The position numbers and the translations under genes were made by a program. Below are positions 20,017 to 29,032 of a stretch of 64,000 nt of DNA, piece after piece (position 1 is the stretch's first letter; each line of letters opens with the position of its first letter). Under the pieces are notes generated by a model that was not told the origin of the DNA, did no database searches, and saw nothing but the letters and a program-made list of their open reading frames with translations. Source of the DNA: Saccostrea cucullata (taxonomy: Eukaryota); contig NW_026923980.1 of assembly GCF_032062105.1 (NCBI RefSeq), positions 1 to 64,000 on the forward strand. The letters are read 5' to 3'.

Positions 20017-20078
20017 GTTTAGATGAAATCAGCCACACTTCGCCTTTTTTCTCAAGGGAGTAGTTCGTATTTATATTC

Positions 20079-23000
20079 GATGCATGTTGTTTCGGCCTTT
20101 CTTCAGTTCGGCCCGAGGTTCGTTCGGCCTCAAGTTTTTTCGGACTGTAGCAATTTCGGCATTAGATACCTAGTCGTTTCGGCCTGGGTTGAAGAAAGTG
20201 GTAAAAATATGATAAAAGAGAAAACGATAAAAAATGATTTAAAAAAAAATGATAAAGAAATGGAGTGAATAAATCTTTTTTGAAATTATTTTATTGTTTT
20301 GTGTTTTAAAATTGAAGTTGATAAACAACTGCTATTGATTGATTGTTCACACAAGTAGAAAACTTCGGCATCAAAGTTTTCCAGGCATTCAATTGTGTAT
20401 ACGTTTTAAACAGTTAAATTATAGAATTAAACTAGAGCCGAGCTCGTTGCAAAGCAACGAATAGGTCTTCCGTTGGAGCAACGGATAAGAAGACGTAACC
20501 TTGAGTCTAGGTCAAAAGCCACATTCTTAAGTTCTACAAGTGAAAATTTAAACCTTTTAAGAGAAGCAACTTGCAATGTTTAGCTAGGAAAAAGACTGTA
20601 AAGGAATATACATGTGTAAATGTGACCTTGAACTTTCCAAGTGACCTTGAACTCTCCAAATGACTTTGATCTAAGCAATGACTACCTCTCGTTATAAAAA
20701 TATTATCCATGTGTTACCGTCTGGAAAATTTCAAACATTTTGTTTAGATATTCTTTCTGTCCATGCATCCAACCAAAAACATCTTATCCTTGGGGACTTT
20801 GAACTCGAGTCAAGGTCACGTCCCATCCTGCATTATATCAGCAATGTTTCACTAGTAGAAAAATGGTAGCGAATTTACAGTTTCACTGTCACTAATCTTG
20901 ACTCGTCCAAATGACTGGATATGTTCAGCCATGAGTTTTTTTTTCTGACTATAATCGAGGCAAAATGATTCATTGGGTTCAACACAATGCCGAGACTATA
21001 GCTCTACTTGTTTGTACTTATAACAAAGGAAGAGAAAACTAGCCATTGCCATCAGACCAAAACTGTAGAAGGAGTAGCGTTTTAAAGGAATTTCACATAA
21101 ATTTCTATTTTTTGTAATCATGACAACACCGTTCATCGAAATCAAAAACGTTGCACTTAATTATGTATCACATTGAAGTCTACTTGTGTGTCCAGTAATA
21201 TTGAAATCAAACTAAAACTGTAGGAGGAGTAGCATTTTTAAGGAATTATATACAGAAATATCTATTTTTAGTAACCATGGCAACACCGTTCATCGAAATC
21301 AAAAACGGATGCACGATATTTTGTATCTTAGTGAAGGCTACTTATGTGCCAAACAATATTGAATTCAGACAAAAACTGTTGAAGAAGTCGCATTTTAAAG
21401 CATTCAAAAACCGATGCACTATACTATGTATCTTAGAGATGTGTACTTGTGTGCCAAGTTATATTGAAATCAGACCAAAACGGTAGGAAGAGTAGTATTT
21501 TGAAAAATTGTTTACAGACAGACAGATAGCTAGACAGACGAACGGACGGCAGACACTTTACTATCGCATCCCACAGACAGGTGGGACAGATATTTATATA
21601 TCGAAAATAACCAAATTAAATAAAGAAATCATTTTTAAAGCATTAAATCGTAGCAAAAAAGAAAATATCAATGGATGCGACACTTTTCAGACGAGGGAAG
21701 AGATATGAACCTCTCATAAATACGGTACACATGTATCAGATCATTGCACGTCGGCAATCTAAAATGACACATATTATTTGTTTTCTTTGTATAACTTACC
21801 CCCCCTCCCTAATTTCTTAGAAAATGTTTGTACAATCAAGAAAATCGGTTACTTTTCATAAAGACTACGACGTTTCTTTCATTTTCAAGAACCGTCATTT
21901 TCAAGAACCGTATAATAGCGAGCGCAGCGAGCTCAATAGAATAACGTGTAAGAAAAGAAGTTCGGAATTGTACACACGTCAAGCAAATTTTGTTGTGCAA
22001 CATTCCCAGAGCTCCTTTACTACCCAATGTCCTTTGCGCGAATAAATAAACAAATAATAACACAAGTAACAGCTTTTCAAAAAGCTTGGCTGACTAATGT
22101 CATCAATATCTATATAATCTATGAGCATGATACATGTAAACTATAAACGTTTACATTGGGGGGGGGGGGGGGGGTTAAATTATTTCACTGGTGTAAATTA
22201 TGGAGATGTTGCACAAAACATAAACCATATATACTGTTTGTATCTCAAATAAAAAATGAAATCATGATCATGTCCCGCTGTAGATTCGAACCCGGGACGT
22301 AAAGATGAACACCTCTGTCCGCAAGTCTAAAATGGTTTTAAAGGATGAGTAAATAAGGAAAAACATTTGATTAATGCTTGAAAGCATTGCTACATATAAA
22401 GGTGGCAGCTGAAAATATGATAACTACAAGAAATTGGGAATCTAACAATTTTGACTGACGTGTAGAATATGATTGATAGTTTCTTGGGTATGCCAAAGTA
22501 TCAAAGATTGTTGGAAACGTGGGAAAAATAATTAAAGCTTTAAATGACCCAACAAACTTGACGGCGATATATGAATGCCATGGTGCGGATTCAGGAAGTT
22601 TTTCCCAGAAATGAGGGGTCAACATCAAATGTTTTATTACTTTAAATGATGTAACTTCTAACTCATTTCACAATGTCACCGAATTGTTTGTTTTTTTTTT
22701 CCCAAAGCTCGACCAGGATTCTGACAAAAAAGAACAGACTTTACATAATTCATGCAGTTTTCATTTTCATTCAATAGAATAGTCCAGAAAAAGGGTGCTA
22801 AAACCTACATGTGACATTTTGGCGCGAAATAATAGTGTCACCCCTTACCTAGAAGACAAATGGACTAATCCAGTAGGATAGAAACGCAGAAAAAAGGTCA
22901 AACGGACATATATCCGTATAAGAACTCTCATGAAATGAATATATGCTAGCAAAAGGCTAGAGAAAATAAATACTTCAGTGTATTGTATTAGCAATATGTT

Positions 23001-26642: not shown

Positions 26643-28853
26643 CTTGAATTTTTGGTGTTTTATTTTTAAAGGAAAGTGCATTATGATTTTATATATAAAC
26701 TTATAAAGTATGATAAAATAAAGCTGGATTAAAATATATTCACTCTAAAGTGTATGCGTGTACATTTCATTTCTTTCTTTAAACTATGACATTTATTGTC
26801 AAACATACTGTCAAAGTAATTGTAAAATTGTCAGTATGCGTGTACATTTCATTTCTTTCTTTAAACTATGACATTTATTGTCAAAGTAACTGTAAAATTG
26901 TCAGTGAGGGTAGAACGGATTTTTAAGGTATCCCCAGTATACAGGGTATACCGTGAAGTGTCAGATGATGAGGTCTGATCGGGGAGGGTAAAGAAAAAAT
27001 TCAGTAAACTCAATAAGTGACAGTGTGTCACTTTCCCCAATACACAAGATATAACTCAAGGTGTCAGAAAATGAGGGGCCTATATGAAGGATTCCACACG
27101 ATTTCAAAGTATCACTTGTTCCTAAACATCACCAGAAGAAAACCAGCAATGGCAGGTATGTAAAAATAATATTGCACAATAATGCATGGCTACTAGTCTA
27201 AACTCCGATTAATTTGCGTTGATATGTAATGTTTACAACAACAACAACAAAAAAACTTCATAAACGTCTGGTTATTTCGAACTAAGAAAAAAAAATACAA
27301 ATAATAATTGGGGGATGTATGTTTAATATATAAATGTTGTATATGACCACGGAGTTTGGGTCAAAATATCATATATGTCGTTGATCGGGAAAGAGGGATT
27401 TGAAAAATTTGGTTTTTAAACAATAAAGATTTAGAAATAAGATAAATGAGAATAACAGATGAAACATATAAAGTTCAAAATAAAAGTCCAAAAGAAGTAT
27501 TGTAAAAGGGGTTAATTCGGCAATGACACGTGAAAATCACGAATGATTTTTTAAAAATTAAATTTTAACAATTGATTAAAATGTTATACGAGATTTCAAC
27601 AGAATAAGATATTAGGATTGTAGGCGATAGAAGTAAATTACAAAATTTTCGATTTATCATGCATTGACATAATTATATTAATTACCCCTGCATCATTTAG
27701 ATGCCAGATGGGATTTTTTTTTAGCTAATTGCAATTTCCTAACTTAAGTAATGAATATATTTATATTTATTACATGCGTAGCAGCCCATGACCATGATCA
27801 TGTAATTTTACAACCTTATTATACGAACTCGTGAAGATTCGGAAAAGTCTGCTGCTGTGAAATTTATTGCTCATCAGTTAATTATGAAGTATTTTTCAAA
27901 GTTTCACAATAATGTGTTGAAAGTGATAAAATGTATAGCTTAACGAGAAAAGAAAGGAAGTTAGGTATTCGGTATCTGCATTTATTTACAGGTCAAACAA
28001 TTCTTCTCGCACAACAGAAAAATATATTTCTTTAAAAGAGGTCTATAAGAAATCCAAACCTCATTTGAAACAATATACTTAAATTATAAAAATCTTTTAA
28101 TGTTTGTATTTATTTATTTATTTTTCTTTTTGTCTATAGCTAGTGGATACACGGCCTGACCATGAGTAATTAAATGTTAATTCTTGAGCCATGTTGATGT
28201 AAATAATTGTGCTGGACAGTGACAAAAATTATACTGTGATTGAGATGACAATGCATGGCATGTGACTCATGTCAACTACATTTTCAAATTAATGTACCTA
28301 TATGTTTTCCCTTAATTTCAAAGTAAAGGGTTAGAGATCAGTTGTAACAGGCTAGCTATAGGGGTTTAGGTTTATGAACAGAATCTCTGTCGATCTTACA
28401 ACAAATTTTTATTTCAAGGCGGCATTTTTGTCAATTGAAGCGTTCAATTTGGCCGGTAGCCGGTTCTTAGGGAAAACACTGCTATAATTGTGTTTGTGCC
28501 AATAAAATATATAAAATAAAATTAAAAATGTTCTAATATATATATACATGTGGTTGACTTTCTTTATTTTATGTAGTGCTGCTGCTCCTGATTTTAAATA
28601 TATAAAATTTTTGATGAATAATAATTAAAAAAAAAAAAAAATCAGGGAAATACTGTGAAATACACTTAACTATTTTGATGGCTTCGGATACATTATTATA
28701 CATTCTGATAGGAAAAATACACGTTAGAAAATGTATTACTAAGTTATTACCTGAGGCCGAAACGACTAAGACCGAAACAACTTCAGGCCGAAACTACTAG
28801 GCACCGAAAATACTTCGGGCCGAAATTAAAACAGGCCGAAACGACTAGAAATC
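20079..28853. mobile_element. Large non-autonomous Mutator/foldback-like element carrying nested insertions
   Basis: GAT...ATC termini; ~110-bp modular inverted ends, each with six ttcgg(cc) units (20079-20190 vs 28749-28853); 9-bp TSD tttatattc/tttatattt (20070-20078, 28854-28862); no transposase ORF seen. Confidence 0.7.
20430..26640 (-). mobile_element. HINE-type ends (one nested element or two fragments), plus another HINE 5' part at ~21040-21590
   Basis: aactagag + cgttgc-aaa-gcaacg stem-loop + aggtcttccg at 20430-20475; aaggtcttccgttggaaacggaagacctt palindrome with aagaataat microsatellite at ~26570-26640; degenerate tandem repeats and acag/acgg microsatellite at 21050-21550. Confidence 0.55.
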
Positions 28854-29032
28854 TTTATATTTCACGTCCACTCAAATGCCACTGTATTCTGAGTGTCTTT
28901 TGGGAAAAATAATAATTTCTCCCTTGAGTCATAGTTTCGGGAGTCTTCTGTGAAAAGAGTATAAACCTCGAGGATTTCCAAACAGTCCTGTCTGTCTGTT
29001 CGTCTCATTTTACGTTTTGGGATTAGAGAAAA

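Follow-up and report, generated by a model that had tools for sequence, protein, structure and literature searches.

The closest described counterparts of the element analysed here are Mutator-like elements (MULEs), which have target-site duplications (TSDs) of 8-11 bp and variable terminal inverted repeats (TIRs), and of which a mollusc group exists (PMC6446971). In Muta1 of Aedes aegypti, a type 2 foldback MULE, each end consists of a terminal motif and 12-bp subterminal repeats with 3-4-bp linkers, and the TSDs are 8 or 9 bp long; transposase binding, cleavage and excision are all stronger with more repeats, the arrays of its non-autonomous derivatives are unequal and the interiors unrelated, and tandem subterminal repeats, 9-15 bp long and separated by short linkers, are given as a criterion for MULEs (PMC5499845, PMC5225508). 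Here we describe an insertion of this anatomy that spans 8,775 bp (positions 20079-28853) between the genes PDAP1 and BUD31 of the oyster Saccostrea cucullata, within positions 1 to 64,000 of contig NW_026923980.1 (assembly GCF_032062105.1, forward strand), the whole of which we call the window.

Three further bodies of work provide the context. Maize Mu elements insert preferentially at or just 5′ of the transcription start site (TSS; PMC2774946), and outward transcripts start in 20 of 33 Mu alleles, often at wild-type levels (bioRxiv 10.1101/2023.06.05.543741). HINEs, which are non-autonomous and of Helentron type, are marked by a 5′ subterminal inverted repeat (subTIR) with a complementary inverted repeat (IR), a 3′ subTIR followed by a palindrome, a central tandem array, a microsatellite near the 5′ end, a T-rich site and the absence of a TSD (PMC7492417). 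Finally, PDAP1 and BUD31 form a divergent pair in human, with a TSS distance of −188 (PMC3815023 supplement), and lie 340 bp apart in cattle (PMC5499805 supplement).

A composite insertion between PDAP1 and BUD31

The start codons of PDAP1 (position 20016, minus strand) and BUD31 (29033, plus strand) diverge across 9,016 bp. The element begins 63 bp from the former and ends 180 bp from the latter, and once it is subtracted together with one TSD the two codons lie 232 bp apart. Each of its ends carries six units of roughly 16 bp, with the core TTCGG at 20091, 20107, 20123, 20139 and 20155 (16-bp period) and at 20178 on the left, and CCGAA at 28757, 28772, 28788, 28804, 28820 and 28836 on the right (spacings 15, 16, 16, 16 and 16). 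All twelve core pentamers are preserved, and the longest run of units, six in the window, compares with a maximum of two across 100 of 100 block shuffles of it. The two arrays are mutually inverted (73% identity over 80 nt; 70% over 100 nt, E = 2 × 10−6), paired units in register agree at 10-15 of 16 positions, and a search with the core motif found no array of opposite orientation inside the element. The resulting TIRs are 100-108 bp long and only 70-73% identical between left and right.

The TSDs (20070-20078 and 28854-28862) are identical at eight of nine positions, the first eight without interruption, and lie flush with GAT...ATC termini. As 49 of the ~64,000 positions of the window match the 9-mer with at most one mismatch, the chance of such a pair is 0.08% for fixed ends and 0.5-3.8% when the ends are allowed 3 bp of slack, the highest value applying to slack on both sides.

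To look inside the element, reads of four of the 24 sequencing runs listed (X1, X5, X8 and X17) were placed on positions 18700-31900. The best of the 24 contained 0.45 of the words searched and none reached half, while the ~0.25 word share of the RNA and small runs stems from the nested repeat described below and is not evidence of transcription. Contig placement is reported for the 15 of 538 joints and 32 of 61,248 pieces that were listed. The 8.8 kb are a composite of a low-copy, non-coding foldback/Mutator-like element, ~2,565 bp long after removal of the nested part, and a high-copy Helentron-type element of ~6.2 kb nested within it. In X1, a run from another animal in which single-copy depth is ~125, pieces of the outer element lie at 1.6-2.7 times that depth when counted by contig and at 5.5-8 times when counted by bin, and contigs join each array to the body beside it. 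An alternative left end at 20165, which matches the right end at 91% over 23 nt, was rejected, having no TSD and an X1 contig that runs on into the array upstream. At approximately 28340-28480 the outer element also holds a fragment of another high-copy repeat (X1 depth 12,000-13,500) that resembles the terminus of a different TIR element.

For the nested element, summed X1 depth, read as a rough guide, is at least 84,000 between 20464 and 26637, and long pieces of even depth, ~98% identical, tile the same interval in the other three runs, in X5 at roughly 37-51 times single copy. Its 5′ subTIR/IR hairpin (26610-26637) has a 13-bp stem with a z-score of −6, equalled in stability by none of 200 shuffles, and the 9-bp subTIR core occurs in this orientation only there, at 26610, and at 20463. 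The palindrome that follows the 3′ subTIR near 20444-20460 has a 7-bp stem of no significant energy, with 32 of 200 shuffles folding as stably. Both ends adjoin short T/A tracts, as at a T-rich site, no duplication is seen, and a microsatellite and tandem array (21045-21555) lie towards the 3′ end and next to a second hairpin, a region that up to 21600 may be a further, shorter HINE nested again. The element shares with Cg_HINE of Crassostrea gigas (PMC7492417) the subTIR/IR, the 3′ subTIR and palindrome, the T-rich site and the lack of a TSD, and also the array and microsatellite if these are its own; it differs in being 6.2 kb long and in the position of the array, close to the 3′ end. The subTIR word of the nested element has one chance match, inside an array, and otherwise none in the two supplement files of that paper, and the end pattern of the element has no match in viral contigs. 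A short HINE-like element also lies just downstream of the PDAP1 coding end, at 16487-16805.

An earlier note on this DNA, made from the sequence alone, had proposed a single 8.8-kb Mutator-like insertion with modular inverted ends and a 9-bp TSD with one mismatch, lying 63 and 180 bp from the two start codons and leaving them ~230 bp apart without it. The distances agree with those computed, the modular ends are borne out by the six inverted units at each side, which exceed anything in the shuffles, and the TSD holds with eight exact positions flush with the termini. A Mutator/foldback-like insertion with TIRs and a TSD thus stands, but it is not one element, as 70% of its length is nested and unrelated and had been missed.

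Nature of the terminal arrays

By anatomy the outer element is Mutator/foldback-like; its family membership is not proven, and a hAT or P-type foldback element is possible. The foldback-MULE features of this single locus, a 9-bp TSD flush with the termini and six units per end at a 16-bp period, recall Muta1, which likewise combines a short terminal motif with tandem units of 15-16-bp period and an 8/9-bp TSD, and they recall its derivatives in being non-autonomous, with an unrelated interior and unequal or truncated arrays. Muta1 differs in having nine units and 97% identity between its ends, whereas the element here has a different unit sequence, carries a nested element and lacks a detectable transposase, as none of its 70 stop-free frames of at least 42 amino acids (aa) gave a Pfam match. 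The Mutator/Foldback element Tm1 of Meloidogyne (PMC3169594), likened here by description, also has composite TIRs, 9-bp TSDs and members that resemble miniature inverted-repeat transposable elements, and is again set apart by the missing transposase. Because both period and TSD length are those of Muta1, the simplest reading is that the 16-bp arrays are putative subterminal transposase-binding repeats and not host-selected promoter elements, and with end architecture of this type no promoter explanation is needed for them. The 27-30% difference between the TIRs is probably built into the family and not decay at the site, since the element body is only ~2% from copies in another animal.

Similar ends were sought elsewhere. 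The TIR patterns have no match in viral contigs; a loose three-unit pattern matches 120 viral stretches, mostly with a 15-bp period and none similar to the TIRs by blastn; and two-unit patterns match one viral and two prokaryotic sequences, isolated and without arrays. Separately, BUD31 intron 1 on an unrelated animal contig (L022, ~935-985) contains three TTCGG units spaced ~16 bp apart, a transposon end of the same type.

The insertion could also be one element but from a different superfamily, such as hAT, P/Galileo or Merlin, in which TSDs of 8 bp or foldback ends occur, a minority possibility that would change only the label and overlaps with the other readings. Against it, the GAT...ATC termini match under the 9-bp but not the 8-bp reading, hAT and P termini usually begin with CA or TA, and the unit spacing agrees with Muta1. 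What keeps it in contention is that the duplication is exact over 8 bp, that the element has no transposase by which to classify it, and that P elements as well as MULEs can have foldback ends while hAT TSDs are mostly 8 bp (PMC5499845).

In one X8 RNA contig, 59 letters precede the matched part of PDAP1 exon 2 (bin depth, 17 bases of contig), which, barring an indel, would put the PDAP1 5′ end at about 20064; this is a single contig, whose donor may or may not carry the insertion. The element starts ~15 bp upstream of that predicted end, so that the PDAP1 upstream DNA is transposon-derived on this allele. The 10-mer CTCCCTTGAG occurs once in each remnant promoter, in the sense direction of each gene, and nowhere else in the window (chance ~0.02), the PDAP1-side copy 4 nt downstream of the predicted 5′ end; it is a possible shared core-promoter element. 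A TATAAAT word that overlaps the TSD stays on the PDAP1 side, and the insertion may have fallen between two self-contained start regions.

A second alternative accepts the same insertion and takes the TIRs as minimal outward-reading promoters, or as proximal elements, by which expression of PDAP1, and perhaps of BUD31, is sustained on this allele, as damage limitation by the transposon and not as domestication. Its precedent is maize Mu, which shares the 9-bp TSD, the insertion just 5′ of a start site and the intact gene, and for which outward initiation in 20 of 33 alleles is documented; Mu differs in that its promoter activity is demonstrated where here it is only predicted, in its simple ~215-bp TIRs, and in that two divergent genes are involved here. 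All DNA above about −15 of the predicted PDAP1 5′ end belongs to the element, and by CpG count the 200-bp windows over the two arrays fall among the highest 1.5% and 2.8% of those in the window, but this richness follows from the sequence of the repeat unit itself. Each gene, moreover, retains its own leader and CTCCCTTGAG, any leader that began deeper in the TIR would include an ATG (20085, PDAP1 strand), and neither a TIR-initiated transcript nor a TIR-to-exon joint is among the joints listed, from RNA donors that may or may not carry the insertion. RNA cover is absent over 28843-29032 in X8 and X17, which we do not use as evidence, as gaps prove nothing. Some contribution of the TIRs is plausible in view of Mu, but we regard this alternative as unlikely on the whole.

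Less plausible still, the two arrays would be single ends of separate or rearranged elements, with a 9-bp match by chance and a spacer grown by piecemeal accumulation of repeats. This would suit the modest likeness of the TIRs, an AT-rich TSD that could arise by chance in up to ~4% of cases with slipping ends, and the lack of any listed contig joining both halves. It sits poorly with two facing sets of six units that match in register, with a TSD flush with GAT and ATC (0.08% at fixed ends), with the similar per-contig depth and divergence of the left and right halves, and with the absence of partner arrays inside the element.

Weakest of all is domestication, in which the insertion is fixed and selection maintains the arrays in the role of promoter elements for two housekeeping genes. 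One foldback transposon, its outward arrays standing in for the halves that an ancient shared promoter had lost, would then drive both essential genes and uncouple their co-regulation. The genes are intact, the insertion is extremely near the PDAP1 start and twelve of twelve core pentamers survive, but a multi-copy element ~2% from its other copies should have preserved arrays even if selection plays no part, eight of nine TSD positions still agree, X1 hints at a different upstream sequence, and young hemizygous insertions are common in oysters, all of which makes it very improbable. Of the regulatory claims in the earlier note, the loss of nearly all native upstream DNA by PDAP1 fits the ~15 bp of non-transposon DNA left above one predicted 5′ end, whereas the idea that the ttcggcc arrays act as promoter elements finds no support, given their Muta1-like transposase-binding architecture and the joints listed, and nor does TIR domestication, as the element is multi-copy and looks young (~2% compared to 5.5% in the flank).

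Ancestral arrangement, age and history of the site

The two genes of the window stand head to head as in vertebrates, differing in the 9 kb between their start codons, which would shrink to 232 bp without the insertion, and because the pair is head to head in human and cattle a short shared promoter is probably ancestral. We scanned metagenomes for the BUD31 first exon and found 58 loci, 38 of them with at least 300 bp upstream. In one of these 38 (L025), a divergent MPRGG followed by a splice donor lies 630 bp from BUD31, like PDAP1 exon 1 (0.01 expected by chance), with no second exon on the contig; a second match to the pattern, in L040, lies 6.5 kb from BUD31 and was set aside. None of the 58 loci is close to the window outside coding exons, and tblastn with PDAP1 found nothing credible in them (best E value 0.14, low-complexity). 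Several others (L013, L031, L018, L021, L034, L038, L044 and L040) have BUD31 head to head with different genes, which we take from their peptides to be DHRS4-like in five loci and PSMD3-like in two, besides a desaturase-like gene. The pairing with PDAP1 is thus not universal, which suggests that BUD31 retains a divergent neighbour in other animals but that the partner changes. The proposal that the insertion split a bidirectional promoter gains from the tight vertebrate pair and the 232-bp spacing, but the empty site itself was not recovered.

Pooled over the longest listed pieces, divergence is 5.5% in the single-copy flank (118 of 2,156 positions), 2.0% in the outer element (16 of 819; confidence interval 1.1-3.2) and 2.1% in the nested element (166 of 7,904). 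As a copy is here compared with a collapsed family sequence, the fair yardstick is half the flank value, ~2.7%, and the insertion would be at most slightly younger than the split from the sequenced animals. A further weak hint comes from an X1 contig (record 8) that matches the window only from 28877; its first 83 letters were not placed on the right TIR, which is what a haplotype without the element would show. In oyster genomes, up to 14% of base pairs are hemizygous, mostly through young transposable-element insertions, and 81% of polarized variants are insertions (bioRxiv 10.64898/2026.02.10.705023). An empty allele very probably exists in this species or a sister species, and we lean towards its presence in X1 itself.

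We favour, with a probability of about 0.62, a young nested non-autonomous insertion in a divergent promoter, with the arrays as transposon machinery. Under this account, a ~2.6-kb non-autonomous Mutator/foldback cut-and-paste element, mobilized by a transposase supplied in trans, would have entered the short divergent promoter of PDAP1 and BUD31 at its open, AT-rich centre and duplicated 9 bp, as the TSD and ends suggest; its 16-bp arrays would be subterminal transposase-binding repeats by analogy with Muta1. The ~6.2-kb Helentron-type element may have landed inside later or arrived with the outer one, an order that the composite structure leaves conjectural. By falling between two start regions, the insertion would have left each gene its leader and CTCCCTTGAG, and PDAP1 the TATA-like word, perhaps the reason why the allele is tolerated. 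It is probably segregating or confined to one lineage, the weakest part of the account.

Several observations weigh against this interpretation. The TIRs are far less alike than the 97% of Muta1, and the public collections scanned yielded neither a transposase nor a second TSD-flanked copy. No empty site was seen: no joint across the element is among those listed, none of the 58 BUD31 loci is from an oyster, and no listed contig links the left and right halves of the outer element. The age argument is weak, and summed contig depth does not equal copy number. The X1 contig that matches from 28877 is trimmed at its opposite end too, by 48 letters, so that divergence alone could explain the 83 unplaced ones, and X1 carries the letter of the window at 28747 at a depth of 124, approximately single copy, a value equally compatible with orthology and paralogy.

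Features of the window and significance

The product of PDAP1 matches PF10252 (PP28, E = 5 × 10−21) and that of BUD31 PF01125 (BUD31), and both reading frames are intact on translation. The splices between PDAP1 exons 2 and 3 and between BUD31 exons 1 and 2 are present in RNA contigs of X8 and X17, which come from two other animals.

Table 1. Coordinates of the two genes and of the parts of the insertion in the window.
Feature	Position	Strand	Details
PDAP1 coding region	17134..20016	-	six exons: 20016-20007, 19487-19360, 19022-18897, 18277-18150, 17732-17581, 17167 to stop; 192 aa
PDAP1 5′ leader and remnant promoter	20017..20069	-	predicted 5′ end of one RNA contig ~20064; CTCCCTTGAG at 20060-20051
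Left TSD	20070..20078		overlaps TATAAAT on the PDAP1 strand starting at 20075
Left TIR	20079..20186	+	GAT terminus and six ~16-bp subterminal units
Left body of outer non-autonomous element	20187..20430		X1 contig 20156-20327, 4 differences, links array to body
Nested Helentron-type non-autonomous element (HINE-like)	20431..26640	-	~6.2 kb, high copy; depth step, motifs, folds
158-bp tandem array, microsatellite and second hairpin	21045..21600	-	much higher depth; inside nested element
Right body of outer element	26641..28753		non-coding, low copy; X1 pieces 27069-27314, 27468-27653, 27715-27929 at ~98%
Right TIR	28754..28853	-	six ~16-bp units and ATC terminus
Right TSD	28854..28862		pairs with 20070-20078
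BUD31 remnant promoter and leader	28863..29032	+	CTCCCTTGAG at 28919-28928
BUD31 coding region	29033..31812	+	four exons: 29033-29126, 31042-31164, 31429-31595, 31762-31812; 144 aa

Elsewhere in the window, a DIRS-like retroelement (49126-53545, minus strand) carries open reading frames that encode reverse transcriptase/RNase H as well as a tyrosine recombinase, and its upstream frames are presumably Gag-like. An unbroken frame of 1,769 aa with ZNFX1 and helicase domains occupies 55315-60624 (minus strand), and a bZIP exon, which we take to be ATF4-like, lies at 37772-38677 (plus strand). Tandem arrays with units of 38 to 167 bp are found at 5881-7164, 11261-14811 and 61075-61732, and a 16-mer of the 167-bp array also occurs in the supplement of a C. 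gigas satellitome paper (PMC8268682).

No description of the locus was found in the open-access literature, judged on titles and abstract openings; it seems undescribed, although each of its components is of a known kind. The event too is ordinary in kind, a Mutator-like element at a gene start with a nested repeat, and its value is that of a natural experiment. If, against our expectation, the insertion were fixed and its TIRs drove the pair, it would exemplify, in an animal, outward promoters like those of Mu that selection has kept. If instead an empty allele exists, two alleles differ by an 8.8-kb split of an old and very compact divergent promoter, and allele-specific expression would reveal whether PDAP1 and BUD31 need their shared upstream DNA and, in the same comparison, whether animal foldback TIRs have Mu-like outward promoter activity.

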